Shown: positions 33,462-61,000 of the stretch, piece by piece
Position numbering within the stretch: position 1 is the first letter of the stretch
Layout: each line of letters starts with the position of its first letter
DNA from: a virus
Virus record (IMG/VR): IMGVR_UViG_3300008255_000115
Span: 1 to 64,000 of that record
Length of the DNA: 64,000 nucleotides
Strand: one strand, 5' to 3'
Translations under genes and position numbers: made by a program
The notes under the pieces: generated by a model
The model's database searches: none
Told to the model about the DNA's origin: nothing
The model's input: the letters and a program-made list of their open reading frames with translations, nothing else

Positions 33462-33510
33462 ACTTCTAAAGTTTATAAAGTTAAATAAAAATTTAGTATA
33501 TTATAGTATA
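33460..33510 (+). promoter_or_regulatory. phage promoter motif with palindrome
   Basis: AAACTT-cta-AAGTTT, then TTTAGTATATTATAGTATA (19/19 identical to 25582-25600). Confidence 0.75.
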
Positions 33511-33521
33511 AGATATTAGCT

Positions 33522-35093: not shown

Positions 35094-35103
35094 AATTATT
35101 ATT

Positions 35104-37905: not shown

Positions 37906-37911
37906 ATCTCT

Positions 37912-37957
37912 AAACTTTAGAAGTGTAAAAAAATAAATATATTTTATGTAACTTAGC
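37912..37957 (+). promoter_or_regulatory. palindrome plus possible -7 box
   Basis: AAACTT-tag-AAGTgT, then TAACTTAG (TAnnTTTG-like). Confidence 0.4.
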
Positions 37958-37963
37958 AAAATT

Positions 37964-42010: not shown

Positions 42011-45000
42011 ATGCCAGAGAATATTATGCCTGAAACACCACAATTACCTGACACTACAGTAGATCCTGTAGTATCTAGTACACCTAATATTAGTGATATT
42101 AAGAATGAACTGTATAGTAATTTACAGACAGACATGGCTAAAGCTAGAGATCCTTATATGGCTGCTAAAGGAGAAGGTCATAACTTAGCTCCTACAAAAG
42201 ATAATGGTTTAAATTTTCAAAGATACTATGGTAAAAAAGAATATACTAAGTTAGGATTTAATCCATATATAGATAATGAAAATTACTATCAACAAAACAC
42301 TTCTGCTTGGGATGATACAATTAACTCTTGGACACAAGCTGGTAATCTATTTAATTTAGGATTCAGTACAATATGGGGTGGTAAATCAGACAGAGAAGAA
42401 GCAAGAGATTATGAGAGATATGCTAATATAGGCACTAGCCAAAGAGGTGGTGTATCTGGATTTATGAACAATGCTATGTTAAATTCTGGATATACAATAG
42501 GTCTATTATCAGAGATAGCAGCTGAAGAATTAGCATTAGGAGCAGTGGAATTTTTTTCAGGAGGTGGTACTACACCACTAGTAGCAGCAAGAACTGCTGC
42601 TAATGTTAGCAGACTAGGTAAACTAGGACAAATAGGTAGTAAGATAACATCTACTGTTGATAGAATAAAAGATCTAAAAAATATAGGTAAAGCTAAAACT
42701 TTCTTTGAGGGAGCTAAATCAGTAGGACAAGCAATAAATCCATTAAGAGGGACCACAGAATATTTATCAACGGTTGGTAGACAATATACTAGATCTAAGG
42801 ATACTGGAAAAATTGTTGCTTTATCTGATATGGCTAAATGGCAAAAAGGTTTTGGTACTTTTTACAGAGACTTACGTGAGATAAATTTAGCTATGGATGA
42901 AGCTCATCTAGAATCAGGTTTTGTTAGTAATGGAATTAAAGATGAATTAATCAATAAAGTTATTCAGGATACAGGTGAACATCCAACTGCTGAAGCAATG
43001 GATGAGATTAATAAAGAAGCAAAATTAGCTTCTGATAATACCTTTGCAACCAACTCTTTACTAATATATAGTACTAACAGGTTATCATTTGGAAATGTAT
43101 TTAATAAGTACATGCCAAGAGCTTTACAAAAAGCTTCAAGTAATATGGCTGGTGGTAGAGTAATTAAAAATAGAGCTACTAAGAAATTAGATTTTGTTGA
43201 ACATGGTGGGCTACTAGGTTATAAAACATTTCTTAATGAAGCTAAATATGCTGCTTCTAATCTTAAGACTATGCCATTACAAACAGCTAAGTTTTTAGGA
43301 AAGTATACAAGAGCAAACTTTGGTGAGGGTGCTCAAGAATATTTTCAAGAAGTTATTCAGGATGCAGAAACTAATATGGCACATGATAGATATACTGGAG
43401 CACTTTCAGGAGGAGCTTGGTATAATGCTTTATCTAGTGACCAATATATGAAAGCATATAAGGAAAGCATGGACCATTTTATAAGTTCTGAAGGTGCTGA
43501 AATATTTGCATCTGGATTTGTAATGGGAGGATTTGCTGGACCAATAGCATATGCTCAACAAAATGCTGTTAAACACTTAACAAAATCCGGACAATATGTA
43601 GTGGACAAAGATGGTTATCAAGCTGATAAGTCTGAAGAAGAGCAAGCTAAGACTGATCTTGAAAAAAATATTACTAAGTTCAATGATATGACAGATGCAA
43701 GAAAGAATTTCTTGTATGATTATATTGAACAATTAAGAACACAAGGTTCTCTTAAAAAAGAGATGGATCTAAAAGAAGATAATCAGAAAGATATAATAGA
43801 TCTTAAAGATATAGCTTTAGTTCAACAGCTTATGTTTGCTGATAATATGGGAGCTTATGATTTAATTCTTGACAAAATTAAAGACATGAGTAATTTATCA
43901 GAAGATGAATTAAGAGAAGCTTTTGGAGAACAAATAGATGAAGACAGTAATTTCATAAGTAACTTTAAAGACAGTTATGAAAAGATAATTAAAAGAGCAG
44001 AAAAAGTAAAAGAGATGATGGATAACTATGATAAGTTATTTCCTGAACCTCCTTTATATGGTGCTGAAAATAGTGATTTTGAAGATCTTATTGAAGAACA
44101 AGATATAAGAAAAGCTAGATATTATACTAAATTATTAGCAATAACTAATCAACAAAGTTTGGTTAGAACTATGGAAAGAATGAGTTCTATCATGAATGGT
44201 GTTTATGAAAAAGCTCCTTTTTGGAATAAAGATAAAACTCCACCTGCTGGAGAAATAACTAAAATATTTAACTATACAGAACTATCACAAGAAGTAAGAC
44301 TTCTAAAGGATGAAATCAAAAGCTTAAAAGGATTTACAAGTTTAAGCCCTGATCAAAGGAAAGATCTTGCATATAAAGAAAAAATTTATGCAACACTTGA
44401 AAAGTTTACAGGTAAAGATGGTGTTCTTAAAGGATTTGTAAATGGTTTAAAAAATCAACAACTTGTAAATATATTAAGAAAACAAGCTGAAAAACTAAGA
44501 ACTCTTGAAACAGGTAAATCTGTAACTTATAAAAGAGGAGGTAAATCATGGGAAGGAATTATTGAAGGTGAGACAATAGACAAAAAAGGAAGACCTCAGT
44601 GGATGATTGTTAAATCTGATGGATCTAAAGTTAGAATTTTAAAAGATTCTGATGTACTGCAAGATCCTGGTATAGATGTGCCTGATATTGAAGATACTTA
44701 TACTGAACCTTTAAAGCAATTATTTAGAGAATACTTGACAATAATAGGTAATAGATACAATAATAAAATAGATGAAACTAATTTTGATTCTGCATTCCAA
44801 GATTTTAAAGATTTTTATACTTTAAATGAAGATGAAAAAAATTTAAGTGAAACTGTTTCATTTTTAATGAATCCGGAAGCTCACTATATGTTTGTTGAAA
44901 GATATAACCAGATGGTTAAGAGTAAACGCACCAACATGGCTAGTGAAGTAGAAGCTCAACTAAAAATGTATCAAGACTCTAAAGAAGAGAATGATCTTAT

Positions 45001-46675
45001 CCAAATGCTTGCTAAAGAATATAATATTTATATTGAAGCAGATGATTTAGAAGCTCTATTTAAAGACAATATTATACCAGACATTTTTCATAATATTGAC
45101 ACAGATGTTAAAATTAGACCAACTAGTGATACTTATAAAGAAATTAATACTGCTATAAAAAATTGGTTAGCAGAAACAAAAAGAGTTGAGCCTGAAATAA
45201 TAACTGAGGAAGTAGTTAAGAAAACAACTGAAGAAGTAAGTGAGTTTAAAGAAATAACAATGGATACACCTATTGATGAATATCCTGCTGAATTATCTTT
45301 ATTAATGGAAGAAGCTATGAGTGCTTATAACAATGCTATAGATGAAAGAGAAAACTTATCTGATATGGCTAAAGAAAATGCTAAAGCAAAAACATTAGAA
45401 GAGTTTATTAACAATCCTGGTGCTAAACCAAGAATAAGAAAAGTACTTGAAAAATGGAATGGTGAATCCCTAGTTAAACCAGTACAATCAAATGAAAAAG
45501 AAGTAATTAATAAAACAATTATAACACCAGACGTAAAAGAAAATGCAGAAGAAAAAATTCAAGAAGTAATAATACCAGAAGGAGAAGTTCTTGATACAAA
45601 TCTTGTTGACCCTAATGCTATTGATGAAAGAGAAATAGCACCAACTGTTGATATATTATTTCCAGATGAAATAAAACAATTACTTCTTAATAAAGAAATT
45701 AGATTTTTAATGCTTGGTGAAACAGATGGACAAACCCAACAGATTGTAAAAGCTTTACAAAAAAGTAAAAAACTTAGATCTAATCAAGGTATTAAAGATA
45801 TAAAAATGAATACCCAAATTGCTATACCTATTACTGTCAAGGGAAAGATTACAGAACTTGTATTTTCATATTCAGGTTTTGTAGACATTCATGAAGCTGG
45901 TGGACAACACCAAATGATTATAGATATGAAGTTACAACCTAAGAAAACAAATGCTTTTCCACATGCTGTTAAAATAGGAAAAGATACATATTATGCATCA
46001 AGTATAAATCATAAAGCATGGATAGAAGGTTCAGGTAAACTTCATAAATTTTCACTTAGACTTATTCAAGGCTCTGAACAAGTTGTAAATCAAGAAGATA
46101 TAGATACAAAATGGACAAGTAGTATTCAAAAAAGATTTAGTGAATCAACAAACTTAGAAGATACCTTAATTGAATTACAGTCAGAAAATACTAAAAGAGA
46201 GATTGAAGGTAAAGCTTTTCTAGATACTGAAGATTTACATTTAATTTATGAAGATTTTGTTAAAAAGTTTCAAGGAGAACTAACTCCATCAAAACTAAAC
46301 TTACAAGATGAGTATAATGTTAAGGGAAAATTACGTAAATTTGGCACTGCAAAAGTAAGTAAGAAGTATCCTAATGGTGTGGACTTTATATCTACAGGTA
46401 AGAAAACATTAGGTCAAGTTCAATTTATTAAAACTTCTGAAATACCAAGTGTTATACAAAATAAATTAACAACAGATATGGATGAAAAAATATCAGAACA
46501 AGGTTTAGAAGAAGTAACTGAAACAGATAAGGAACTATTAAAGGACAGTACAGAGAATAGAGAAGCTCTTAGTAAAGATAAAATGGATGAGTTAGCAGAT
46601 AAATCAGTTTCAATGACAGCTTCAGAAAGAATTCAATACTTAAAAGACAATAGAAAAAAACGCTGTAACCAATGA
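42011..46675 (+). CDS. large ejection protein, 1554 aa, with Gly/Ala-rich membrane-like segments
   Basis: ALGAVEFFSGGGTTPLVAA, EGAQEYFQ, IFASGFVMGGFAGP; first of the three giant genes around the virion RNAP. Confidence 0.65.
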   Translation: MPENIMPETPQLPDTTVDPVVSSTPNISDIKNELYSNLQTDMAKARDPYMAAKGEGHNLAPTKDNGLNFQRYYGKKEYTKLGFNPYIDNENYYQQNTSAWDDTINSWTQAGNLFNLGFSTIWGGKSDREEARDYERYANIGTSQRGGVSGFMNNAMLNSGYTIGLLSEIAAEELALGAVEFFSGGGTTPLVAARTAANVSRLGKLGQIGSKITSTVDRIKDLKNIGKAKTFFEGAKSVGQAINPLRGTTEYLSTVGRQYTRSKDTGKIVALSDMAKWQKGFGTFYRDLREINLAMDEAHLESGFVSNGIKDELINKVIQDTGEHPTAEAMDEINKEAKLASDNTFATNSLLIYSTNRLSFGNVFNKYMPRALQKASSNMAGGRVIKNRATKKLDFVEHGGLLGYKTFLNEAKYAASNLKTMPLQTAKFLGKYTRANFGEGAQEYFQEVIQDAETNMAHDRYTGALSGGAWYNALSSDQYMKAYKESMDHFISSEGAEIFASGFVMGGFAGPIAYAQQNAVKHLTKSGQYVVDKDGYQADKSEEEQAKTDLEKNITKFNDMTDARKNFLYDYIEQLRTQGSLKKEMDLKEDNQKDIIDLKDIALVQQLMFADNMGAYDLILDKIKDMSNLSEDELREAFGEQIDEDSNFISNFKDSYEKIIKRAEKVKEMMDNYDKLFPEPPLYGAENSDFEDLIEEQDIRKARYYTKLLAITNQQSLVRTMERMSSIMNGVYEKAPFWNKDKTPPAGEITKIFNYTELSQEVRLLKDEIKSLKGFTSLSPDQRKDLAYKEKIYATLEKFTGKDGVLKGFVNGLKNQQLVNILRKQAEKLRTLETGKSVTYKRGGKSWEGIIEGETIDKKGRPQWMIVKSDGSKVRILKDSDVLQDPGIDVPDIEDTYTEPLKQLFREYLTIIGNRYNNKIDETNFDSAFQDFKDFYTLNEDEKNLSETVSFLMNPEAHYMFVERYNQMVKSKRTNMASEVEAQLKMYQDSKEENDLIQMLAKEYNIYIEADDLEALFKDNIIPDIFHNIDTDVKIRPTSDTYKEINTAIKNWLAETKRVEPEIITEEVVKKTTEEVSEFKEITMDTPIDEYPAELSLLMEEAMSAYNNAIDERENLSDMAKENAKAKTLEEFINNPGAKPRIRKVLEKWNGESLVKPVQSNEKEVINKTIITPDVKENAEEKIQEVIIPEGEVLDTNLVDPNAIDEREIAPTVDILFPDEIKQLLLNKEIRFLMLGETDGQTQQIVKALQKSKKLRSNQGIKDIKMNTQIAIPITVKGKITELVFSYSGFVDIHEAGGQHQMIIDMKLQPKKTNAFPHAVKIGKDTYYASSINHKAWIEGSGKLHKFSLRLIQGSEQVVNQEDIDTKWTSSIQKRFSESTNLEDTLIELQSENTKREIEGKAFLDTEDLHLIYEDFVKKFQGELTPSKLNLQDEYNVKGKLRKFGTAKVSKKYPNGVDFISTGKKTLGQVQFIKTSEIPSVIQNKLTTDMDEKISEQGLEEVTETDKELLKDSTENREALSKDKMDELADKSVSMTASERIQYLKDNRKKRCNQ

Positions 46676-49600
46676 ATTGTATATTAGATGGTTCTGATTA
46701 TGAAGAGTTATTCATAATTGCTCATGGAGCATTAACAGATAGTAAAAATAATAATAAACCTTTTGATCTTAATCAAGAGATAAAAGATTTATATGAAGCT
46801 TTTAAAGATGACCAAGCTTATGCTATTGGATTAGTTCAAGCATATCCTTCTCAACTTGTTATGGCATTAACTCATACAAGAGAACTATCTAAATATCATA
46901 GGTCTAAGGGGTTAACATTAGATTTACTAGAAGATCTTACAGATACTTTTGAAGATATAAATGCTGTATCTAAATACTTAAGTCCTGATCAAGCAGATAA
47001 AGAATCTATAGATGCCATTGATGACAGTATTAAAGACCAAGCTGAAAAACCAACTATATTACCTAAATTAACTCCTGATCAAATTGACAAGCAAACAGCT
47101 ATACTAACAAATCTAGTTAAAGAATTTATCTTTAAAGGAGTATCTGGTATGGCTACTACAGGTCAACAAGCATTATTAGATCCTTCTGGTAAATGGACAC
47201 AAGAGAAAAATCCTGAATTAGATTTCTATTATAAGTTTTTTAAAGTATTTAATGAAGAATTTTTAGGTGTGCAAGATCCTGAGAAAGTAACTATCAATGG
47301 ACACACTGGCTTCAAATTGAAAATATTAAGTAAAACACAAATAGATATTGAGGTTGCTAAACCCTACGATCAGAGGCTTGTAAAAGGAGAAGAAGCATAT
47401 CCTGCTGTAAGAGGTCAGGCTATTTATCATGGTGGAATAGCAGTTGCTGTAACAGACAATAATGGTGATGTATTATATTTTGATGAACATTATAATGTAG
47501 TAGGTAAAAATAAAGGTGGTAAACCTATATATTATAATGTGAGGTTTATTAAAAAAGAAGGAGACACTTATACAACAGATAGTGATATACAATCAGTTCA
47601 AGAAATGGCTAATAACTTAGGAATATCTCCTGAAGTTGCTCACTCATTACGTCAAGCTGAATTCAAAGCTTTATATGACTTAAGAAATTACATCAATGAA
47701 AAGAGAAAAGAAAATAGTGTATTACTAAATATAACAGGTGTTAGTCAAGGTGTTCTTAATATAAGAAAAAATTTACCAACAGATATTGATACTTCAATCA
47801 ATTCAATTAATTGGGATAAATCTGATATTGATCTCAATATTAAAATTGCAAAAAGAGATGCCCCTGAAGCAGGTGAAAGAAAAGGTGGTTTATATATAAG
47901 TATTCCTGGTCATAGATCTATACCAATACAAGCAAACAATTTGTCTCAAGAAGATATAGACAAGGTTCTTGATTTAATTTTGGATCCTAGTATTACTGAT
48001 GAAAATGGACTACCTATTACAGCAGATGTTAAAGTAAAACTTATTGAGTATATTATACTTACTGAAGATGGTTCTTTACAAGTAATGGATAGAAAAGGTA
48101 AATTCATTGCTTTATTTCAGGGTAAACAAATTACTCCAGAAATGAGACAAGAAATTAAAGACTTTCTAAATATAAAATATATTAATCCCAATACAGGACA
48201 ACCAACTCAATATAATCATACAAGAGGTCAATATACATTTAAAGAGCCTACTGCAGGTAATATATTTGAAGAATTTACTATAAATGATGGTAAACTCATT
48301 AGAACGCCTATTGATTTAGAACAACATGTTGCTAATCATAGTAGTATGAAAATAATACCTAATACATTAGGTAAAGATAAAGTAATTACTTTTCTAAATG
48401 GTTACTTTACTTTTAATATAGATTCTCAAGATTCTAATAAAATAGAAAAACTCACCACTTCAAAAAAAGATACAAAAGAATCTACTACTGTAAAACTATA
48501 TAGAGAAATTCCTGTATTAGATGTTAATGATATTATTACTCAAGAAGGAACAAAAGGAGCAGCCGTTTATAATAAAAAAGATAAAATAATTAAAGTTAAT
48601 AGAAAACTACTTAAGGAAAAATATGCTCAGAAAGCATGGACTAATCCTAGAGAACTTACTGAAACATTAGATGGAAGAAATGTAAAATCTTTTGCTCAAC
48701 CTTTACATGAAGATCAATTTCCAACATATGAACAGTTTGAACAATTTGTTATAGAGCATGAATATCAACATAGTCAATTAAGTAGAGCTCAGTTTCAAAA
48801 ATCCAATCCTAATTCTACAAAAGGACAATATGAAACAGAAATAAATGATAGAGCATTATTTACTTTATCATTACATGATAATATTCCATTATTTTTTTCA
48901 GGTAAAAATGATCTAGGGAACATTAATTCTAGTGAAGAAAACAATGAACCTCAAGAGAAAGTAAAAATATTTAAAAAGAATAATGTAGAAATTAAAGATG
49001 ATGATGGTCTAACTATGAACCGTATCATTCCGATGAAATCTCAACCAGAGCAAATAGCAGCAGCAAAAGAATGGTTTGATGCTTCTCCTCTTTCAAAACA
49101 TATTAAATATAAAGAATTATTTAATGTTGTTAACTCTAATGCCTGGGCAGAGTTTATTAATGGAGGTATTAAATTATATGCTGGATCAGATTATACAGTA
49201 TTGTATCATGAAGCTTTCCATGCCTTTACACAACACTTCCTGTCTAAAGAACAAAAAGTAAAATTATATAAAGAAACAGCTATATTAGCTCAGGGTAAAA
49301 AAGCAATTAAAGATTATGCTAAATCTAAGAATGTATCAATAGATAAACTATCAGATTATCAAAAGTATTTAGCTATTGAAGAACTCTTAGCTGAAGGTTT
49401 TAGAGAATATGTTTTATCTGATGGTAAAGTATTAGGACAAAATCCTGTAAGTAATAGTATCTTTAGAAATATATTAGATTTCTTAAAAGAACTTTTTGGA
49501 ATTAAATTATCTCAATCACAAATAATTACAGATAAGGTTCTTCTTAATATAGAAGATTTATATGCACAGTTACATATAGGTAATATTAATAATTATAGAC

Positions 49601-52600
49601 CATCTGTTAAAAATGCATATTTTGGACAAGGTTTATATTCAACACCATCTGCAGTAGCAGGAGAAACTACAAATATAAATGATCAAGATGCTTTATTATT
49701 ATTACAAAGTATTGATGGAATTATATCTGAATATCAAGATGAAAGAAATTTACAACTTCAAATTAATTCACCAGGAGATACAAGATATACTAGTGCTATT
49801 TTTACTAATCCAGAAAAATATTTAAAAGAAGTATATAATATTGCACGTAACAAGTTCATAGATAAGTATGAAGAATTTAATATAAAAATAGAAAAAGCAA
49901 ATGAAGAAGAGAAACCTATTCTTATTGAAAGAAGAAACCTTTTAGAAGATGCTCTTACAAACTTTGGAGACCCAAATAACCCAATCAAAGGAGGAGGTCT
50001 TCTTGCATTTCATATAAAGAAAAGTCCTTATATGAGTACATATACAAAGGATTTAGATAGAGAAGCTTTTGAAAAAACTGAAGAAGATATTACAGCAACT
50101 AGATATGATATCAAAGGTAATGAATTATCTAAAATAGATCTGGCTTCTAATAGGGTATCTTACTTAATTAAAAGTATAAAAAAATATGATACAGATGGCA
50201 ATCAAGTTAAAAATGAATTAGATTTTCCAGTATTAATGGAATTGAATGAAACATTTGGAAAGATAGCAAGTATCATTGGAGATAATAATAATAGTCCTGC
50301 AGAAATAAGAACAGTTTTATTAAAAGCAGTTTCTGAAAATCCTTGGGTTGATGCATTAGTAAGAAAGTTAGGTCCAACATTAAGTCCTCATCATTCAGTA
50401 AATGATTTATGGACAGGATTCTGGGCAGCTTTCTATATGTCAAATCAGAAACTCCACCAAACAATGATTAACGAGATATCAGATCCTAAAACAAGATCAA
50501 AGTCTTATGAAGTTTTAACAGGATATGCTTCTGCAGTATTTAGACAAGCAGAGAGAGATTTTAGAAGTCACTTTAAAATTAGTGATCACCCAAATCCTTT
50601 TATTATTGATAATGGTGTATTTGGTAATAAACTTGATAGTAAATCCATACTTGATAAGTATAAAGGTAAACTATATAAAAGAGAATTTGAATTTTTAAAA
50701 GATATAGGTATTCCTTTAACAGATACAAAAGACACTAGAGAAGGTCTTAAAAATATTAACTTAGAATATTTGTTAGATAAAATTGAAATGTTACATATAA
50801 AAAATGTACCAATAACAGATATTATTCAATCTTTAAGAGATCCTTATATATTTAAAACAGCTACTGGAGAAATACATATAAAAAGTGAATCTAGTAATAT
50901 TAATAAAATCTTAGGTTTAGAAGTTAAACATTCAGGAAACTATTCTAATGCATCTGTACTTACAGCAATTGGAAATGTGGCATATGAAACAAGTATGATG
51001 TCAACTATTGCTGTTCAAATAAAAGCAATAAATGAATCAGAAACTTTTCAAGATCTAATAAATATTCCATATATGTCTTACTTAGATTATAAAAATAATC
51101 CATCTGTAAGAGCTTCAGTAAGACTTAGATCATTATATGAGTTTGACCCAAATACTCAAACTTTTGGTAAAAGGAGAAAAGATGTAATATTTACTTTAGA
51201 TAATTTAGATGGTACACAAAATATAATAGATAACTCATATACTGATAAAGATTATAGTAGTACAACTTCTAAATCTGACAAGTATACAAGGTTAATGCAA
51301 GATATTTATTCATTGTTTCTAGAAGGTAAACCTTCAGGTATTACTCCAGGAGACAAAAGTACTATTTTAAGTGCTAATATTAATACAATATATACTGAAG
51401 GTAATGATAAACATTTATATGTAGACCTTGGTGACTTTGGTAAAAAAGGAGGACAAGTTAATCTAGGTATTGAAAGAGCTTATAATATCTTATTACCATA
51501 TTTAGAAGGTGAACTTCAAAGAATTATTGATGTACAAAAACATCAAGAAGAAAGTTTCCTACCTAATATAGAAGGATATACTAGTCCTGATAAAAATAAA
51601 AATATTTCAGGATTAGACTTCTCAGCTTTTAAAGGAGTATTTAAAAAAGAAACTAAAGATAAATTATTAGAATTATATAAGGCAACAACAAACTTAAAAA
51701 ATATACCTTCAACATTACGTACAGAAATGCTTAAGGATATGCAAGAATATTTCAATTTTACTACTGCACAAACCAAAACTACATTAGATAGAATGTTATT
51801 TATTGATAAAAACTTAGCAGGACTAGTAGAGAAAGGGCTTGGTGAAGTTGTAAATTCTATTGAAGTAAGTAATATAATACTTAAGGCTTATACTGTTAAC
51901 AAATTCATACATAATCTAGATGATGTTACATTATTTTATGGAGATCTTGCACAATATAAAGATCTTGATAAAAGAGGTTCAGCTTTAAATTCTACAGGTA
52001 GAATGTTTAGAACAGATGATGATGCGTTATCTTATGTTAATGATGTATTAAAAAGACCTTATGCTACAAAGAATAAAGTAAATAAGTATAAAAAATTTGA
52101 TGGAACTCTTGAAACAGCAATATTAGCTGAGGATATAGAAAGATCAGTATTCTATGAAGAATATGAAGAAACTTTAAAAGATGCTAATGTATCAGATGAA
52201 GAGATAAAACGTATTCTAAAACCATATGAAAAAATGGAAACAGGAGATGCTCAAGGTTATATTACTTTTGATTCATACAGAATTCTTTCTAAACTAAGTA
52301 ATAGATGGAGTGATCAGCAAGAAGCTTTATATCAACAAGAAATTAATGACCCAAATTCTGTTAGTAAAAAAAATATGTTGGAATATTTTCCTGTTAGAAA
52401 ATATCAATACTTTGGACCACTTGCAGTTCAAGGCATACACACTACAGCTTTTCATAAATTCTCTTTACTTCCACTTATACCTAGTGTTATAAAAGGTAGA
52501 AAGTTAGAAGAACTTCATAATAATATGATGAATAATGGAATTGATTATGCAACTTTTAAAACAGGTTCTAAAGTAGGAACTGTTGTTGCACCAGGAACAA

Positions 52601-55600
52601 TAGGAGGAGATAAGTTATATAATACAGATAAAACTATTGCACCAACGAAATATACAAAAAATACAATATATTTAAACTATCTTAAAGATCAACTAGATAT
52701 TAATTCAGAATATAAAGAAAAAGTAATTTTCTCTACTCAGTTAAGAGCTTTAATTGAGGAAGGTTTAATTGAAGGTGGAGTACCTGTTGATTTTAAACCA
52801 GAACTATCTCTAGATGAAAGAGTTGAGCTTTGGGAAAAATCACCAGAAGAAACAGATTTATATAAAGTATATAAAAAGCATGAAGATAATATTAATAAAC
52901 TTATTAAATTTAGAAAAGCAGAATTAAGAAAGGAGTTAGGTTCAACAGAAGAAGAACTAACTAGTGGAAAAGGAAATATGGCTAAATTAGTAAGATTTAT
53001 ACAAAAGGAATTAGATCGTCAAGATCTTGCAGATCATGAAATAGATTTTATTAAAGAAAAAGATGGCAAATTAGTAAGGGATTTATCAATCTCTCCAATT
53101 GCTTCTAAAATTGAAAAAGCTCTCAATGCTATAGTTAACAATAGATTAGTAAGACAAAAAGTTAATGGTGAATCTTTAGTTCAAGTAACTAACTCAATGT
53201 GGGAACCAACTAGTAGTTCAGCTGAAGAAAAATTAAGCTGGGGAACTAAGGATCTCAAGACTTATAGAAGAGATAAATCTAAACAAACTCTTAATTCTTC
53301 TCAAATATACTCTCAACTAGGAACTAAAACTCAATTTGAGAATGTAGTTATTGATGAAGTAAATGGTAGAAAACCTGCTATTAAGGGTAATTTAACATTA
53401 ACTAAAAAGAATTTATTTACTGTAAAACCAGTTCAATCAGCTGATAAAAAAGCTATTATAAAAGCAAGTGTTGCTACACAATATATAGGATTTGGAAAAG
53501 GTATTGATAATAGTTCTACAGAATTATATAGACAACAAGCGGAGCAATATGCTAATACAGGAAATTACTCATCTAATGATGTGATATTTGTATCTATTGG
53601 TGGTAAAAGAGGAGATGAACAAGTTAGAAAAAAACAACAAGATAAGACCATTAAGGAAGCATTAAAAGCTATTGAAGCAGGAGCTACTTTAATTACAGAT
53701 AATAAAAATTATGTAGAGTCTTCTAATTATAATGAAGGAGAAAAGAGACTTGCAAAAAATCTTGAGTCTAAAGGTTATAATTATTCAGAAAAAACTATTA
53801 ATAATCAGATATTAGGTGTTTGGAGTAAAAACCAATCTTCCAAACCAATAGTAGCATACAGAACAAGAGGTAATAACTTCTTAGAAGCACTTGAAAAAGA
53901 TAATGCTATTGGTAATCCTTGGAGTCATGCAGGGTATAGTTTATATAAAACTAATACAGTAAAAGAAGCAGTAGAAGAATTTATAGCTTGGATGACAGGT
54001 GAAAAACATACTGATAAATTACAAGACTATAGGCAAGCTATTATTGATAAAATACCTGAAATGAAAGATAAACCTATTCTTTATTATAAAGATTTAAGAG
54101 AACCTTCTCATGCTACTGCTTTAGATTATTTGATTAATAAATATGATTGGAATATTCAACCATCTACTAGTAAAACATTAGGTATGGATGTTAAAGTTGC
54201 ACTGCAAGGTAACTTTAAAAACCTTATTCATCTTGTTCATAAAGATGGTAAAAAAGTAGCTATATACAACAAAAGAAAAAAAGAAGATGCTCAAGGTAAT
54301 ATTATATTTACTAGGGAATTAGATTCAGATGCCACTTTAGAAAGACTTAATGAAACAATTAAAGATCCTGAATGGAGATCTAATCAAGATAATCTAGACA
54401 TGATTACTATGGTAGGTGTTAGAATACCAGTACAAGCTCATAACTCAATGGAGTTTATGACAGTATATGAATTCTTACCAGAAAGAGCAGGTAATATAAT
54501 AGTTCCTCCTGCTGAAATTGTAGCTAAATCTGGATCTGATTTTGATATTGATAAGCTAACTATAATGATGCCTAGTATTAGCATAATTGGAGGCATTCCT
54601 GAAATTATAAAAGAACAGACTGGGGATCCAGTAAATAAACTTAAAAGAACAGATCAAATAACTGAAGAACTTAAAGAATTAAGAATTAAAAAGTCTTCAA
54701 TACAAGAAGAAGTTACAGCTAAATTTAAGGAGGTATCTCCTAAAGATTTAACTGAAGATGATAAAGCAGAAATAAGAATTGCTCATAAATATTTTGATGA
54801 AGAAATTGGAGAACTAAAAAAAGAACTTAAAACTTATGAAAATAATGTAACATTATTAACTAACATGACTAACCTAAATGAGGAACAACAAGAACTATTA
54901 GGTAGATCATGGGTAGGTATTGATGAAGTAAATAAGTATATTGATATCATGGAAACTGAGCGTAGAAACACAGTAAATGATATTAGACAAGAAATGCGTC
55001 AAGAGAAAATTGATACCATAGATACTAGTAAACTTAAAGCTATATCTTCAGCAATAAATAAACTTGAGAAAGAAAAGAATTCCTTAAGTGGAAAAGCTCT
55101 TGAGAATAATTTAATGTTTACTATAAGAGATATATTACAGTTACCAATTAACTATATTAATTTATTCACTCCTAATGATACATCACTTGTAAGACCTTTA
55201 GCAGAACAATTATCTAAAAACAGAGATTATAATGAACTAGATGGAGTCTTTGGTAAAACAAAAACTAGAGATGCAACTAAATATTTAGAACCAGCATATA
55301 ACATTTCTGTACATGATAGAAATGCTGTAGGTAAAGATACATTAGGTTTAGGAGCAGTTGATAATAAATATAATCCTATATTCAATCGTATAGGTATGTA
55401 CATGAATCCATATTACTTAAAAGGTATTAAGAAAAGACTAAGAAGAGCTATTATATTAATGGAACATAATACTAGACAAACAGAAGATGGACAAAGAGGT
55501 ATATCATTATCACACTTATATGATTTTAATAATGAAAATAGGATAGCTAATGTCATTAGTCAATTGATGAATGGTTGGGTTGATGTAGCAAAAGATGCTT

Positions 55601-57999
55601 GGATATTTGACATTCAAGGTAATAAACAAGTATCTCCAATATTATTATTTTTAATTCAAGCTGGAGTGCCTTTCCGTACAGCTGTTTATTTTGTTTCTAA
55701 TCCTCTTATTAAAGAATATGTTAAAGAGCAAATTATAGCTACAAGTCCGTTTGCAAAACCTAATAGAGAAAATCCTAAATCAATATCTTTTTATAGAAAT
55801 AAAGCTAAAATAAAAATATTTGATAGTATTAGGCTAGGTGGAGTAACCAGATTAAATGAACAAAACATAAGAATTATTGATGATAATAAACTTTATAAAA
55901 CAACTCTTAATTTTACTAAGAATATAGAGTTTACTAAAGATAGTAATTATAATATTTCACAAGTAAGTTTATATGAGGCACAACATTCAAAACAAGCTAT
56001 AGCTGGATTTTTACATTATTTAGAATTAGAAGACCTTTCAAAAGGTGTAAGTAAATTAAAACTGACTCTTAACTATGACACAAGTAAATCTAATAGTTTA
56101 TTTGATGCTCAAATGATAGAGGCTAATTTAATAGAATTACAAACTCAAACAATGTTTCATCCTAAATTTATTAAAGCTATATTAGATGAATCACCTATAG
56201 GTAGTTTTAGAATTGCTCCTTTTCAATTAGAATTATTTGGACCTTTATTTGAAATAAGAAACAACACAACACTTAATAACTTTTTAATTAATAAGTTATC
56301 AGAAATGAAGAATATTAAAAAGATGGAAAATGTTTTTGGTACTACAGAAAGATATATTGAGGAATATCAAAATGATGTTGTTGTAAAGATCTTTACAGAT
56401 AATCTTAAAAAATATAGAATTAGTGACACAACATATAAAGGTCATGAAGTTATAGGAACTAAAGATGAAAAACAGATATTTCCAAGAGGTGCTTTTTATT
56501 CAATTGAAAATAATAAAATATATATAGATAAGCAAACTCTTGATATGCAATATGAGCATGATTTGTATTCTAACAATTATAAGACTGGTACTACTATTCT
56601 TAATATTGCTTTACGTGATATAACATATGGTAAACTTGATTTGGCTAAAGTACCTATTGAAGCATTTAAAACAAGTGAAAATTCTAGAGAAGAATACTAT
56701 CATTTTGTTATTGAAAGAGAATACCAAAGAGCTCTTAATCCATTTGCTGAATTAAGTAAAACTCATTATTTTAAGTATAAATTTAATAAAAATATAGAAA
56801 AATATAAAGGACTAATTAATTTAACAGGAGAAGAATTAACAAATGAATTACTTAAAAGAACCTACGAAGAGATCCTAAGAGACACTGCATTAGATAATAT
56901 TATGAACTTCTGGAAGATATTTAAAAGTAAAAATACTTTTGCAGATCAACTTTATGAGTTAAAAGAAATGCATCCTAATCTTATGAAATATAATATTGTA
57001 AAAGATTTGGTTATATCTGAAGCTACTAATAAAACAAAAACTTTAGAGGGAGAAGAAAAAGAATATATTATTTTTAAAAATATTGTATTAAGAGATAATA
57101 GAGTAACTGAAGATTTGTTTAACATTTACTATAATAATATGCTTAAGCTCTCTGATGCAAGTACTATTAGTATTTCCATTAGTAAAGATAATACTGAACA
57201 AGATTACATAGAAAATAAACGTGTATCTAAATTTTTCTCTAAATTACCTTTAGTGGCTTTCTTACAATCTGGATTAAATACTAAAGATAGTCTCTCCATT
57301 ATGAGAGCTATGCCTACTGATGACATTGTTGCTATAGTTCAAGAAGAAGCTAAGTCATTTAAAATAACTGAAGATTTTTTAACTAATTTCATGTATAAAT
57401 TTAATTTCCAAAATAGAATTCAAAATATATCTGTAAGAAGAAGATTAAAAGATTATGTAACACAAGACTCAAATAATATTCCTAATAGACAATTAGCTGA
57501 AGAACATGAAGAAAAAGACTTAATTATAGATCCACTAGATAGAAAAAGCTTAGAAACATTTATTAGTAACAATCCAAATGTTATCTTTGTACTTGAAAGT
57601 TCTAATATTAATCCAGAGTTTGGTACAGGATCATTTAAAAATGATAACATTGTAACACTAGAACTTAAATCGGGAAAAGAAGCTATAGATATGTCATTAG
57701 ATAATATAGAAAAACTATCTAAAGCAGGTACACCAATAGCTTTTTTAAATAGAAGTATTGGATATGGTAGAATCCTTACTAAAAAGAATAAAAAAACAGG
57801 TCAAATGATTGACCAACAAATGTATGAGTATTTAACTACAGAATTATTTTCAAGATTTGGATATGAAAATTCATATAGTAGATCAGTTAATGAAATAAAA
57901 GAACTTATTCAAAAATCACAAGAAGTTAGTGACTTTGATTTGAACATATCCTTTGATGATCTTGCTGAAGCAAGAGAAAGATTAAATTGTAAATTATAA
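46672..57999 (+). CDS. virion-packaged two-barrel RNA polymerase polyprotein with zincin and other inserted domains
   Basis: RIPVQAHNSM...SGSDFDIDKL (DFDID at 54538-54552, the catalytic motif of phi14:2 gp66-type RNAPs); DAQGYI; HEYQH and HEAFH zincin motifs. Confidence 0.9.
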   Translation: MNCILDGSDYEELFIIAHGALTDSKNNNKPFDLNQEIKDLYEAFKDDQAYAIGLVQAYPSQLVMALTHTRELSKYHRSKGLTLDLLEDLTDTFEDINAVSKYLSPDQADKESIDAIDDSIKDQAEKPTILPKLTPDQIDKQTAILTNLVKEFIFKGVSGMATTGQQALLDPSGKWTQEKNPELDFYYKFFKVFNEEFLGVQDPEKVTINGHTGFKLKILSKTQIDIEVAKPYDQRLVKGEEAYPAVRGQAIYHGGIAVAVTDNNGDVLYFDEHYNVVGKNKGGKPIYYNVRFIKKEGDTYTTDSDIQSVQEMANNLGISPEVAHSLRQAEFKALYDLRNYINEKRKENSVLLNITGVSQGVLNIRKNLPTDIDTSINSINWDKSDIDLNIKIAKRDAPEAGERKGGLYISIPGHRSIPIQANNLSQEDIDKVLDLILDPSITDENGLPITADVKVKLIEYIILTEDGSLQVMDRKGKFIALFQGKQITPEMRQEIKDFLNIKYINPNTGQPTQYNHTRGQYTFKEPTAGNIFEEFTINDGKLIRTPIDLEQHVANHSSMKIIPNTLGKDKVITFLNGYFTFNIDSQDSNKIEKLTTSKKDTKESTTVKLYREIPVLDVNDIITQEGTKGAAVYNKKDKIIKVNRKLLKEKYAQKAWTNPRELTETLDGRNVKSFAQPLHEDQFPTYEQFEQFVIEHEYQHSQLSRAQFQKSNPNSTKGQYETEINDRALFTLSLHDNIPLFFSGKNDLGNINSSEENNEPQEKVKIFKKNNVEIKDDDGLTMNRIIPMKSQPEQIAAAKEWFDASPLSKHIKYKELFNVVNSNAWAEFINGGIKLYAGSDYTVLYHEAFHAFTQHFLSKEQKVKLYKETAILAQGKKAIKDYAKSKNVSIDKLSDYQKYLAIEELLAEGFREYVLSDGKVLGQNPVSNSIFRNILDFLKELFGIKLSQSQIITDKVLLNIEDLYAQLHIGNINNYRPSVKNAYFGQGLYSTPSAVAGETTNINDQDALLLLQSIDGIISEYQDERNLQLQINSPGDTRYTSAIFTNPEKYLKEVYNIARNKFIDKYEEFNIKIEKANEEEKPILIERRNLLEDALTNFGDPNNPIKGGGLLAFHIKKSPYMSTYTKDLDREAFEKTEEDITATRYDIKGNELSKIDLASNRVSYLIKSIKKYDTDGNQVKNELDFPVLMELNETFGKIASIIGDNNNSPAEIRTVLLKAVSENPWVDALVRKLGPTLSPHHSVNDLWTGFWAAFYMSNQKLHQTMINEISDPKTRSKSYEVLTGYASAVFRQAERDFRSHFKISDHPNPFIIDNGVFGNKLDSKSILDKYKGKLYKREFEFLKDIGIPLTDTKDTREGLKNINLEYLLDKIEMLHIKNVPITDIIQSLRDPYIFKTATGEIHIKSESSNINKILGLEVKHSGNYSNASVLTAIGNVAYETSMMSTIAVQIKAINESETFQDLINIPYMSYLDYKNNPSVRASVRLRSLYEFDPNTQTFGKRRKDVIFTLDNLDGTQNIIDNSYTDKDYSSTTSKSDKYTRLMQDIYSLFLEGKPSGITPGDKSTILSANINTIYTEGNDKHLYVDLGDFGKKGGQVNLGIERAYNILLPYLEGELQRIIDVQKHQEESFLPNIEGYTSPDKNKNISGLDFSAFKGVFKKETKDKLLELYKATTNLKNIPSTLRTEMLKDMQEYFNFTTAQTKTTLDRMLFIDKNLAGLVEKGLGEVVNSIEVSNIILKAYTVNKFIHNLDDVTLFYGDLAQYKDLDKRGSALNSTGRMFRTDDDALSYVNDVLKRPYATKNKVNKYKKFDGTLETAILAEDIERSVFYEEYEETLKDANVSDEEIKRILKPYEKMETGDAQGYITFDSYRILSKLSNRWSDQQEALYQQEINDPNSVSKKNMLEYFPVRKYQYFGPLAVQGIHTTAFHKFSLLPLIPSVIKGRKLEELHNNMMNNGIDYATFKTGSKVGTVVAPGTIGGDKLYNTDKTIAPTKYTKNTIYLNYLKDQLDINSEYKEKVIFSTQLRALIEEGLIEGGVPVDFKPELSLDERVELWEKSPEETDLYKVYKKHEDNINKLIKFRKAELRKELGSTEEELTSGKGNMAKLVRFIQKELDRQDLADHEIDFIKEKDGKLVRDLSISPIASKIEKALNAIVNNRLVRQKVNGESLVQVTNSMWEPTSSSAEEKLSWGTKDLKTYRRDKSKQTLNSSQIYSQLGTKTQFENVVIDEVNGRKPAIKGNLTLTKKNLFTVKPVQSADKKAIIKASVATQYIGFGKGIDNSSTELYRQQAEQYANTGNYSSNDVIFVSIGGKRGDEQVRKKQQDKTIKEALKAIEAGATLITDNKNYVESSNYNEGEKRLAKNLESKGYNYSEKTINNQILGVWSKNQSSKPIVAYRTRGNNFLEALEKDNAIGNPWSHAGYSLYKTNTVKEAVEEFIAWMTGEKHTDKLQDYRQAIIDKIPEMKDKPILYYKDLREPSHATALDYLINKYDWNIQPSTSKTLGMDVKVALQGNFKNLIHLVHKDGKKVAIYNKRKKEDAQGNIIFTRELDSDATLERLNETIKDPEWRSNQDNLDMITMVGVRIPVQAHNSMEFMTVYEFLPERAGNIIVPPAEIVAKSGSDFDIDKLTIMMPSISIIGGIPEIIKEQTGDPVNKLKRTDQITEELKELRIKKSSIQEEVTAKFKEVSPKDLTEDDKAEIRIAHKYFDEEIGELKKELKTYENNVTLLTNMTNLNEEQQELLGRSWVGIDEVNKYIDIMETERRNTVNDIRQEMRQEKIDTIDTSKLKAISSAINKLEKEKNSLSGKALENNLMFTIRDILQLPINYINLFTPNDTSLVRPLAEQLSKNRDYNELDGVFGKTKTRDATKYLEPAYNISVHDRNAVGKDTLGLGAVDNKYNPIFNRIGMYMNPYYLKGIKKRLRRAIILMEHNTRQTEDGQRGISLSHLYDFNNENRIANVISQLMNGWVDVAKDAWIFDIQGNKQVSPILLFLIQAGVPFRTAVYFVSNPLIKEYVKEQIIATSPFAKPNRENPKSISFYRNKAKIKIFDSIRLGGVTRLNEQNIRIIDDNKLYKTTLNFTKNIEFTKDSNYNISQVSLYEAQHSKQAIAGFLHYLELEDLSKGVSKLKLTLNYDTSKSNSLFDAQMIEANLIELQTQTMFHPKFIKAILDESPIGSFRIAPFQLELFGPLFEIRNNTTLNNFLINKLSEMKNIKKMENVFGTTERYIEEYQNDVVVKIFTDNLKKYRISDTTYKGHEVIGTKDEKQIFPRGAFYSIENNKIYIDKQTLDMQYEHDLYSNNYKTGTTILNIALRDITYGKLDLAKVPIEAFKTSENSREEYYHFVIEREYQRALNPFAELSKTHYFKYKFNKNIEKYKGLINLTGEELTNELLKRTYEEILRDTALDNIMNFWKIFKSKNTFADQLYELKEMHPNLMKYNIVKDLVISEATNKTKTLEGEEKEYIIFKNIVLRDNRVTEDLFNIYYNNMLKLSDASTISISISKDNTEQDYIENKRVSKFFSKLPLVAFLQSGLNTKDSLSIMRAMPTDDIVAIVQEEAKSFKITEDFLTNFMYKFNFQNRIQNISVRRRLKDYVTQDSNNIPNRQLAEEHEEKDLIIDPLDRKSLETFISNNPNVIFVLESSNINPEFGTGSFKNDNIVTLELKSGKEAIDMSLDNIEKLSKAGTPIAFLNRSIGYGRILTKKNKKTGQMIDQQMYEYLTTELFSRFGYENSYSRSVNEIKELIQKSQEVSDFDLNISFDDLAEARERLNCKL

Positions 58000-58001
58000 T
58001 T

Positions 58002-61000
58002 ATGAGCTGTCAATTAAGAAACAATGAAGATGGTACTTATACTGTTAGTGCACCTAATGGTGAAGAATCTATTTTATTTAACCAAATAACTAATCTTCCT
58101 GAGATTGAGAATGAACATCAAGCTGTACAAGCTTGGATTAAAGTTTATACAAAAAGTTTTAAAGACTGGTATGGTTTAGATTGGGAAATTATTTCAAAGA
58201 CAGAAAAAGATAAGTTGATAAAGGCAGGATTCTTAGATCAAAATGGAGAACCTGTTATATTCTATAGAGGTGATTACACAGGTTTGGAATCATTTAATTA
58301 TTCAGATAATGTAGGTAAATTTGGACAAGGCATTTATCTAGCTCAAAATAAAGCTCAAGCAGAAGCATTTGCTAGTCAAACAAATAGAAAAGTATATCCT
58401 GTCTTTTTAAAACCGGGTAAGTTTAAAGTATTTAAAAACATAACAGAATTTAAAAGACAAGCTGCTGAATTTAATAAAACTAAATATGTACCAACTATTC
58501 AACAAATAAAAAATTATGTAGATACTTTACATAGTGATGACATTACAATAGTAGGTACTGGATTATTAGGAAAAGAATTCAACACAGCAAAAAAAGAGAA
58601 TGTTAAATCTATTTTCTCAGAAGGTTTTATGTTAACTCTTAAGTATTTTGATCCATTATTACCAACACAAACTTTCAATGAAGATTTTCAAAAAACACAA
58701 AAAAGTGAAAGCTTTATCAGTGAGATGATCTTAAGATTACAAAATAATTTAGGATTAAGTTCTGAAGATATTCAGCTCATTACTAAAGAGGATGCTTTAC
58801 TAATAACAAATAAAGCAAAGAATCCTTATAAAGATCAAGCAGGATTTTTTTATGAGGGTAAAGTTTATCTTGTAAAAGGTAAAATTACACCTGAAACAGT
58901 ATTTCATGAATTTGCACATCCTCTTATAAAAGCTATATCTAAAGATAACAATAAACTTTTCAACAGAATATACCAGGACATTATTCAAGATTCACAAGGA
59001 CAACAGTTTCTAGCAGAAGCTATATCAGAAAATCCTGAGTTAGATCCTACAAATGAGCAAATTAAAGAAGAGGTTATAGTTAAAGCTATGACATATGCTG
59101 CAAAAAATTCAGATATGGTAGATCCTGTAGTACAACCCTCTAAAGGATTAATTGCTGCACTTAAGAAATTATTTTATGCTATTAAACAGATATTACGTAA
59201 TATATCTAAAGGACCCACAAAAGTAGAAAACTTATCTTCTACTACTACTGTTGAAGAATTGGCAAATATGCTAATGAATAAACAATGGAACATAAACATG
59301 AACATTGTAAAAGATTCAGATATTGTAGCATATATAAACGAACATAAAGAAAGGATAGAAGAATTAAATCAAAGAGCAAATAGTAAAGAAAGTATGGCAG
59401 CATATTATACTCTTCTTAAAGAAGCTGGTTCTATATATAGAAATCAACTTCAAGCTATGTTAGAATCAGAACACTATGATGAATTAGCAATAGTACTATC
59501 TGATGAGACTGGACAATTAGATGTAGAAGCTATTAAAAGAAATATAGGAGATCTTGTAAACGATACATCTATTATAAAAAAACAAGTAACAAGACATACA
59601 AGATTAGTTAATAGTAAAACTGACCAAGAAAAAATAGCAACTAAAGCTCAAAATGAACATGAAGAAACTCTTGAATTTGAAAGAAGAGTAACTGCATTAT
59701 CTCTTAATATAATTACTATAGATGATCAAGTAAAAAGAATTAAAAAACATATTGTTTCATTAGCACAAGAACCAGATCAAAAAACTGCATTTAAACAGTT
59801 AGCATTCTATGTAAAACAATTAAAAGCTTGGAATGAACATTTAGAGAACTTTGATAAAGAGGCTAATAAAGCAAACCTAGAAACTGATAATCCTGTAAGA
59901 CAAGACATTAATAGTATTCTTAAAAATATTAAAGACACTGAAAATAATATAGAAAAAATATATGAAAATACCTTATCAGAAACATTTTCTGAAATATTTG
60001 ATAACTTAACCATAAATGTAACTAAAAAACAAGAAGCTCTTATAAAAGAATATAAAGAAAAAATACAAAAAGGAGGAGATAAGAAATATCTTGAAAAATT
60101 AATTAAAGAAGCTGAAGAAGAAATAGAAAGAGTACAAGTACCAAAAGAAAAAATGCTTAAATATCTTACTGGACAAATGGGTGATATAGGGTTTTTACAT
60201 AGTCAATTTGAAAACTTTATATCTAGTCAAGATCCTTCAATATCGAGTTTTGCTGCATATATAAAAGATAATCATACTAAAGTTAATGGTAAACTTCATA
60301 ACAAGCTTAATAGCTTTTTAACAGAACTTGGACCTTTACTTAAAGAATTTGGTATAACTCCTCAACAACTTAGTAAATTCCGTAAAGAGTTTGCTTTTAT
60401 AGATAAGAGTACAAGAAGAAATGACAAAGGTGAATTAGAGGATTATCAGATCTATACATTCTTTAATGAGTATCAGAACTATAAACATACTCTTGCTATT
60501 TTAAATGATAAGATACAAGAAGCTAAAGACAATTGGATAGATGACCCATCTACAGAAAAATTACTTAAACTTAATGAATTAAATTCAATTAAAGATGAGC
60601 ATATAAAATATTATTTTCGTAAACAATATATAGATGAATACTATCATGCTGATGATATGTTGGAATCAACTGAGTTAGGTAGAGAAGCAAAAGGAGAAAT
60701 AGATGATATATTAAGTGAAATAAGAGATTGGCAGAATGTACATCCTGATGCCACAGAGATCTATGAAGACTTTGAAACAGTTGAAGTACTATGGAAAGAC
60801 TATAAAAAGAAATTTTCATTATATGATGATTTTGGTCTTAAAAAAACTGGTGATGAACTTAAAAAAGCTGAATTACTTAAAGAAAATAGAGATGCTAAAA
60901 GAAAATTTCATAAATATACTATAATACCTGGAGCTTTTGAAGGAGCTTTAAAAGCATTTGAAGTTAAGCTTGTTGCAAGTCTACAGCATGAAGGACTACA

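Follow-up and report, generated by a model that had tools for sequence, protein, structure and literature searches.

A probable three-gene cargo module in a crAss-like phage

The window that we analyzed comprises positions 1 to 64,000 of IMG/VR virus record IMGVR_UViG_3300008255_000115, a 99,192-bp record that represents an 83%-complete genome of an environmental crAss-like phage (Crassvirales). The subject of this study is the last three genes of its late strand, which lie side by side in the same orientation, encode proteins of 1554, 3775, and 2045 amino acids (aa), and together contain only four codons for cysteine (Cys). The third gene runs beyond the window to position 64139, after which the coding strand switches, and its product was examined in the full record. 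Negative Cys positions are counted from the C-terminus. The features of the three genes, all on the + strand, are as follows.

42011 to 46675, + strand: 1554-aa cargo protein, first member of the proposed chain; no N-terminal Cys, sole Cys at -3
46664 to 46666, + strand: TGT codon for Cys1552 (-3) of the 1554-aa protein
46672 to 57999, + strand: 3775-aa predicted virion RNA polymerase (RNAP) protein of the crAss type, second member of the proposed chain; Cys only at 3 and 3773
46678 to 46680, + strand: TGT codon for Cys3 of the RNAP protein
49207 to 49221, + strand: HEAFH zincin-like motif, RNAP protein residues 846-850; H846, E847, and H850 invariant
54538 to 54552, + strand: DFDID catalytic motif, RNAP protein residues 2623-2627; D2623, D2625, and D2627 invariant
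57988 to 57990, + strand: TGT codon for Cys3773 (-3) of the RNAP protein
58002 to 64139 (window end 64000), + strand: 2045-aa protein, third and last member of the proposed chain; sole Cys at residue 3
58008 to 58010, + strand: TGT codon for Cys3 of the 2045-aa protein
58236 to 58475, + strand: ART-PolyVal domain (Pfam PF18760), residues 79-158 of the 2045-aa protein

On the basis of homology, the three genes appear to be the RNA-polymerase cargo module of Crassvirales, and their products are presumably packaged in the virion, as published proteomics reported for module members of phi14:2 (bioRxiv 10.1101/2020.03.07.982082) and crAss001 (PMC10172136). The assignment draws on the DFDxD motif, the similarity to phi14:2 gp66, the giant co-oriented partners at the end of the late block, and the HExxH domain. 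BLASTP searches with the 3775-aa protein matched phi14:2 gp66 (E 6e-15), the RNAP of LMMB, a relative of p-crAssphage (E 1e-13), and crAss001 gp50 (E 2e-11); the protein is also homologous to the RNAP of crAss002. Because the zincin-like region at the C-terminus of crAss001 gp47 corresponds to residues 824-990 of the 3775-aa protein (E 3.5e-6), the break between proteins must be placed elsewhere in crAss001. The 1554-aa protein corresponds in position to phi14:2 gp67 and to the N-terminal portion of crAss001 gp47, and ∼800 aa at its N-terminus are homologous to the N-terminal region of 4,400-4,900-aa fused proteins in a sister clade, but it matched no family in PHROGs or Pfam. In the 2045-aa protein, ART-PolyVal scored 33.2 bits against the Pfam cut-off of 31.2, a HEFAH motif is found at residue 302, and the domain is probably an injected effector. 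The ART-PolyVal segment, an insert absent from most relatives, is flanked by the Cys motif of the N-terminus on one side and by the HEFAH zincin motif on the other. None of the three giant proteins matched PHROGs, and a sequence search of the PDB gave no real match. The initial annotation, made from the sequence alone, had described a DUF4326-like insert in the RNAP; no match to this family (PF14216) was obtained by Pfam search at E ≤ 10 in the insert (53179-54261) or in the six-frame translated genome, which leaves that assignment unsupported.

Four cysteines at two gene junctions

The single Cys of the 1554-aa protein is residue 1552, in the C-terminal sequence ...KKRCNQ; the RNAP protein has one at residue 3 (MNC...) and one at residue 3773 (...NCKL); and the 2045-aa protein has only that at residue 3 (MSC...), with none at its C-terminus. 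These reading frames and positions are exactly those given in the initial annotation, which had proposed from them that intermolecular disulfides or metal bridges join the three proteins in gene order. All 4 Cys among 7,374 residues are thereby accounted for by the -3 and +3 positions of the two junctions, and the chance that four uniformly placed Cys would all fall in the 12 positions no more than 3 residues from the four junction ends is approximately (12/7374)^4 = 7e-12. The numbers of in-frame TGT or TGC codons in the three genes are 1, 2, and 1, compared with ∼150 TGY expected from base composition and 14-157 in each of the other two frames. Since TGY is common in the other frames and rare in frame, the purge of Cys works at the protein level. 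Low Cys content is not a trait of the phage as a whole: only 7 Cys occur among the 10,462 aa of the cargo block (32604-64139), against 321 among the 19,847 aa of the other open reading frames (ORFs), and in tail-fiber-like ORFs Cys makes up 3-7% of the residues.

All four codons are TGT and lie no more than 10 nt from a start or stop codon, as might be expected if the pattern were accidental or a by-product of nucleotide signals at the junctions, such as translational coupling or promoter motifs. The chance value calculated above for the window alone and the abundance of TGY in the other reading frames speak against such an origin, to which we return with the comparative data.

The C-terminal 250 aa of the RNAP protein, modeled with AlphaFold2 (mean pLDDT 74.7), have a helix at model residues 229-246 followed by a tail at 247-250. 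Cys3773 is located in this 4-residue tail behind the last predicted helix and is therefore predicted to be exposed. The same 250 aa (window 57247-57996) contain, just before the C-terminal Cys, a conserved alpha/beta domain with the pattern G-x-x-[IL]-x-F ... GYGQ ... TF-YLS-x-x-L-[YF]-x-x-FGY-x-NP, and this domain recurs at the C-terminus of an extra protein at another locus (L002, 1325 aa). It had no match in Pfam or the PDB, and a Foldseek search with the model found nothing at E ≤ 0.001.

Conservation and pairing of the terminal cysteines

Homologous loci were found with alignment-based scans, single-sequence searches with each N-terminus having found none; megablast against phage records likewise gave no near relatives of the junction region. 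The 78 loci around RNAP homologues and 70 around fused forms of the protein yielded 142 non-redundant loci (numbered with the prefix L). Nearly all of 120 RNAP-protein homologues (28-53% identity, 3,000-5,400 aa) contain exactly two Cys, one at positions 3-6 and one at -1 to -8, and neither C3 nor C3773 varies in an alignment of 22 sequences (29-51% identity) with a mean column identity of 25%. Among the last 10 residues of the upstream partner there is a Cys at 67 related loci, placed at -1 to -5 in 64 of them, and at ∼124 loci the downstream partner has a Cys among its first 8 residues, at 3-6 in all but one. The C-terminal Cys is within 5 residues of the end at ∼95% of junctions. Short conserved motifs accompany the residues: the RNAP N-terminus has M-x-C-[AS]-L-x-x-x-Q, and many downstream proteins begin with M-A-x-C-P-N-K. 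These motifs suggest docking elements that place the thiols side by side.

Junctions were defined as pairs of consecutive same-strand ORFs of at least 200 aa. Among the 491 counted, 203 had both terminal Cys, 279 had neither, and 9 were mismatched (482/491 concordant; Fisher p ∼4e-127, shared ancestry not corrected for). Most of the mismatches were attributable to frameshifted ORFs, to the signal-peptide Cys of unrelated downstream genes, or to an inserted 324-aa ORF. The co-conservation of the C-terminal Cys of one protein with the N-terminal Cys of the next, proposed as a check in the initial annotation, was strongly borne out. In a rough tree (FastTree on a 150-aa block), the state of the first junction changed about twice and the number of downstream links at most 8 times, with the cases in cultured and gut phages being additional. 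The avoidance of Cys elsewhere was equally general: 299 proteins of the putative chains with at least 1000 aa (830,217 residues) had 43 internal and 359 terminal Cys, and 270 of the 299 had no internal Cys at all.

Two loci have Cys-containing ORFs between the protein with the C-terminal Cys and the partner with the N-terminal Cys, namely L140 (13747-20884, 324 aa) and L107 (9767-32742, 609 aa); these ORFs may be mobile-element insertions. The last Cys of the L107 RNAP is at -62, and its stop codon or C-terminus may be altered.

The junction counts bear on the proposal that each terminal Cys attaches to some other partner (portal, capsid, DNA, or a cofactor) or marks the protein for packaging or processing. 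The zincin-like protease motifs of the module might process termini. A common partner would not, however, require that the Cys of one protein and that of the next appear and vanish together, nor would it explain the absence of Cys at the outer ends of the chain. Moreover, no Pfam or PHROGs domain was found at the termini, and the stubs beyond the Cys comprise only 0-9 residues. We consider attachment to a third partner very unlikely. Split inteins or trans-splicing were also rejected, as the 0-9 residues after the C-terminal Cys and the 2-7 before the N-terminal Cys are too short for intein halves, and the Pfam scan revealed no Hint or intein family. A lipobox was rejected because the Cys is at residue 3-6 and there is no signal peptide.

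The module in cultured crassviruses

The terminal Cys of the module proteins in cultured relatives are listed below, with positions given in parentheses.

phi14:2: gp67 (-1), gp66 (3, -2), gp65 (3)
crAss001: gp47 (-3), gp50 (5, one internal, -9), gp49 (5)
LMMB: (-2), then (3)
crAss002: gp32 (-2), then gp33 with an internal Met-Ser-Cys, probably the true start

The modules of phi14:2 and crAss001 resemble that of the window in their homologous RNAP core, DFDxD motif, giant neighbors, and Cys rule. They differ in that the window RNAP protein has 3775 aa compared with 2180-2412 aa, in that the zincin-like domain is in the RNAP protein of the window but at the end of gp47 in crAss001, and in the ART-PolyVal domain of the window downstream protein. 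For crAss002 (L156, MN917146; 10642-10760), the annotated gp33 begins MVLDYSIN... and has its Cys at residue 35, whereas the in-frame Met at residue 33 gives MSCTPSNPK..., the N-terminal motif of the family; the true start of gp33 is probably 32 codons downstream of the annotated one. The gut phages had more internal Cys than the marine phages, although few genomes were compared. This contrast would fit oxidative mis-linking as a selective force, within the limits of so small a sample.

Cysteine pairs follow protein ends

Natural fusions and fissions of the module proteins were informative. In a sister clade (33 proteins, ∼60 loci, 4,400-6,250 aa), the upstream protein and the RNAP are fused, and nearly every fused protein retains one Cys, at the C-terminus, facing a Cys at 3-4 of the next protein. 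Hidden Markov models of the last and first 120 aa at the first junction detected no remnant of the terminal motifs inside the fused proteins, and the old junction could not be placed. The paper on the gp66 structure describes fused forms as "likely cleaved" (bioRxiv 10.1101/2020.03.07.982082). The reciprocal case is LMMB, in which the RNAP and the downstream unit are fused and a terminal pair is present only at the other junction (-2 and 3). At loci with one or two extra proteins in the series, each extra protein has both terminal Cys and the last protein has only the N-terminal one. The ∼250-aa extra protein of L055 and L065 and the C-terminal RNAP domain of L044, L058, and L073 can be aligned over their full lengths, and the additional break carries a Cys pair. 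The position of the break itself also varies, being ∼185-215 aa after the zincin-like HExxH in crAss001, LMMB, and crAss002 and ∼845 aa before the HExxH in the window, with a Cys pair at the break in all four. By comparison, the RNAP gene of cr108_1 is split inside its catalytic motif by a group I intron, where there is no protein end, and this split has no Cys pair. We conclude that the Cys pairs, which are conserved and strictly matched at junctions, are gained and lost with protein breaks and track neither domains nor DNA. The cr108_1 intron (L081, NC_055878; 17805-18123) matched RF00028 with 80 bits (E 1e-20) at ...AKAGSD/[x]DIDK..., and the record annotates the two RNAP exons as separate hypothetical proteins.

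These comparisons also settle the question of nucleotide signals. Across the loci the spacing between genes varies from -17 to +34 nt, the Cys are found at -1 to -10 and 3 to 8, and in crAss001 the gene for gp47 (Cys -3) is on the strand opposite those for gp50 (Cys 5 and -9) and gp49 (Cys 5), with its C-terminal Cys kept. A cause at the level of DNA or translational coupling is excluded by the spread of the gaps, the varying Cys positions, and this strand inversion, and the residues are conserved down to 28% identity. Chance or a DNA signal is thus refuted by the comparative data, and we give that explanation practically no weight.

Another alternative is a different disulfide topology: middle proteins might each form a ring through a bond between their own two ends, with the first protein bonded to the last, or like ends of identical copies might be joined. 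The numbers of N- and C-terminal Cys balance under these schemes too, and because each crAss001 virion has several copies of each cargo protein (PMC10172136), contacts of like with like could occur. In two reciprocal cases, however, fusion has eliminated just the Cys pair at the fused junction, the pair at the other junction being untouched, whereas with ring closure it would break two different bonds. Like-with-like bonding offers no reason for the co-occurrence at junctions (203, 279, and 9) and leaves unexplained the constant absence of Cys from the N-terminus of the first protein and from the C-terminus of the last. Cys counts do not separate the topologies by themselves; it is only the fusion and fission data that favor pairing of neighbors. 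With these data in hand, the other topologies seem decidedly unlikely.

Comparison with ejection proteins of other phages

A terminal disulfide of the proposed kind has been described in Anabaena phage A-4L (A4). Cys1715 is the only cysteine among the 1717 residues of its gp27, and Cys5 the only one among the 1114 residues of the neighboring gp26; cryogenic electron microscopy of the A4 pre-ejectosome revealed a Cys1715-Cys5 disulfide between gp27 and gp26 inside the capsid (PNAS 2025, PMC12002296). The window proteins have the same signature, a sole C- or N-terminal Cys in ejected proteins that are otherwise Cys-free, and the two systems share adjacent co-oriented genes and large ejected proteins with the sole Cys at -3 and 5, respectively, in A4. 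They differ in several respects: A4 has one link instead of a chain of two to four, it has no RNA polymerase in the assembly, its proteins form a pentameric ring round the portal axis, it belongs to another phage family with another host, and the paper treats the bond as a stabilizing detail and not as a general rule. BLASTP of A4 gp26-gp29 against the window proteins, the cultured crassvirus proteins, and every ORF of 500 aa or more from the 142 loci gave no match at E ≤ 0.01. The likeness is one of working principle, not family membership.

The A4 structure helps to weigh a further alternative, named in the initial annotation beside the disulfide, in which the paired terminal Cys hold neighbors by a shared metal ion (e.g., Zn, Fe, or Cu). 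The four Cys of the three window proteins could in principle make one Cys4 site, the junction statistics are equally compatible with any Cys-mediated bridge, and HExxH metal-site motifs are present elsewhere in the RNAP and downstream proteins. A single Cys4 site nevertheless fails to generalize, because there are always two Cys per junction, which gives totals of 2 in fused forms and 6-8 with extra proteins. Residue frequencies aligned on the Cys revealed no conserved His, Asp, or second Cys beside it, and two thiolates alone are a poor site for common structural metals. In A4 the same signature corresponds to a disulfide, and that bond joins neighbors, which also tells against the other disulfide topologies. 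A metal bridge is accordingly an unlikely explanation of the pairs.

Other phages that eject large proteins share the avoidance of Cys. N4 (L153 in our sample) has no Cys in gp50 (vRNAP, 3500 aa), gp51 (644 aa), or gp52 (150 aa), and T7 (L157) has none in gp15 (747 aa) or gp16 (1318 aa). T7 gp14 has one Cys, at residue 2. These proteins resemble those of the window in being large proteins that leave the capsid by a narrow channel with no internal Cys, and they differ in having no paired terminal Cys, so that nothing points to a covalent chain. The polymerase of N4, a single-subunit enzyme of the T7 type, is not related to the two-barrel RNAP of crAss-like phages. Avoidance of Cys looks like a general property of proteins that are threaded out of a capsid; we found no paper that states such a rule for ejected proteins.

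A proposed reducible head-to-tail chain

The results are best explained by a head-to-tail chain of reducible disulfides in which the C-terminal Cys of each protein is bonded to the N-terminal Cys of the next, a reading to which we assign a probability of approximately 70%. Crassvirus cargo is believed to leave by extrusion through the tail in a partly unfolded state. In an oxidized, assembled virion, the RNAP would be joined at its N-terminus to the 1554-aa protein and at its C-terminus to the 2045-aa ART/zincin protein, giving a linear "pseudo-polyprotein" of ∼7,400 residues with S-S joints in place of peptide bonds. One Cys would be kept near every terminus that faces the next member of the module and the rest would be purged, since a stray extracellular disulfide would introduce a loop or branch and prevent threading; N4 and T7 are probably subject to the same constraint. 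With the joints at the extreme ends the chain would stay thread-like, whereas an internal cross-link would give a loop or branch; because the joints are within 10 residues of the ends, such a linear thread would fit a narrow channel. The chain could transit the tail channel in fixed order at 1:1:1 stoichiometry, and thiol reductants of the host cytoplasm would then cut it and free the RNAP and the ART/zincin protein. The chain model would thereby explain both the purge of Cys and the terminal placement of those that are left. The bond in crassviruses, its timing, the order of ejection, the release by reduction, and the role in stoichiometry are inferred.

Viral polyproteins offer a parallel in that several units travel as one covalent chain and are parted at the site of action, and some crassvirus lineages have the units of the module as one real polypeptide. 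The joints proposed here differ from theirs in being post-translational disulfides between separate products, with release by reduction and not by a protease.

Disulfides do occur in crassvirus particles: crAss001 virions have them in gp57, a protein of the portal vertex, as well as in the hub and ring proteins of the tail (PMC10172136), so oxidation of the particle takes place. Several points weigh against the proposed chain. The crAss001 disulfides link portal-vertex and tail proteins and not cargo, which is unresolved in that structure (PMC10172136); no experiment on a crassvirus shows a disulfide or other covalent link among these proteins; and the structural papers on phi14:2 and crAss001 make no mention of cargo cysteines. 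The host cytoplasm is reducing, and neither a thioredoxin, a glutaredoxin, nor an Erv1/Alr-type oxidase was found in the 83%-complete genome. The junction statistics are uncorrected for ancestry, the tree containing only ∼2 and at most 8 changes of state; the purge is not absolute, as some gut crassviruses (LMMB, IAS, and crAss002) have several internal Cys; and the Cys counts, taken alone, fit a sequential chain and some other pairings alike. On balance, the disulfide chaining proposed in the initial annotation is supported by the co-conservation at junctions, the tracking of fusions and fissions, and the A4 signature, with a small residual probability left to a metal bridge or to another pairing topology.

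The broader form of the idea is that Crassvirales as a whole use a modular, redox-cleavable pseudo-polyprotein in which terminal disulfides are interchangeable over evolution with peptide bonds, a pair being lost by fusion and gained by fission, with ejection as one thread of set order and stoichiometry, uncoupling by host thiols, a start of infection that depends on the redox state of the host, and an independent origin in a cyanophage. We regard this as evenly poised between right and wrong. The initial annotation knew of no description of such chaining. For Crassvirales we found none either: the phi14:2 RNAP paper, the crAss001 atlas, and library searches yielded neither cargo cysteines nor a link between these proteins. 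One terminal disulfide between two ejection proteins was already published for A4 (PMC12002296). What is new is the order-wide rule, the multi-link chain with an RNA polymerase in the middle, and the exchange of Cys pairs with peptide bonds.

An outstanding question about crassviruses, the most abundant phages of the human gut, is how megadaltons of cargo protein, a giant RNA polymerase among them, leave the capsid in functional form. If correct, a reducible end-to-end chain would explain the order and stoichiometry of delivery, the purge of Cys, and the variable number of genes (from one to up to five) that encode the same units. Two annotation rules follow: giant ORFs that are Cys-free except for terminal Cys mark members of an ejected chain, and the conserved N-terminal Met-x-Cys helps to place start codons, as for crAss002 gp33.

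Cargo genes upstream of the module

Upstream of the three genes (32604 to 42007, + strand) lie the genes of four Cys-poor presumed cargo proteins of 285, 523, 933, and 1347 aa, which have 0, 1, 0, and 2 Cys, respectively, and are outside the Cys-linked chain. When the four were compared with PHROGs, only the 285-aa ORF had a match (phrog_36695, virion structural protein). The 1347-aa protein (37964-42007, start MATYLQG) has C128 and C134 as its only Cys. Both are at equal positions in the homologues with the MATY start of L002, L004, L008, L014, L017, L018, L023, L025, and L036, and the remaining relatives have 0 Cys; the two residues look like an optional internal CxxxxxC pair in a cargo protein that is otherwise Cys-free.

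Two junctions among these upstream genes (window 33390-35151; ORFs 32604-33461, 33522-35093, and one starting at 35104) carry a different recurring signature, which is also found in L017, L083, L086, and L146. The C-termini end in ...Y/G-x-[IV]-[DE]-[IY]-L(D), as in YRVDIL and NIEYLD of the window and GADIEIL, YKIDYLD, and YGIEYLD of relatives, and the next proteins begin with a basic strand, MKKKCR and MRKVRI in the window and MAKIKIN and MRKVKIT in relatives. This signature may represent a non-covalent docking pair for the earlier cargo proteins.

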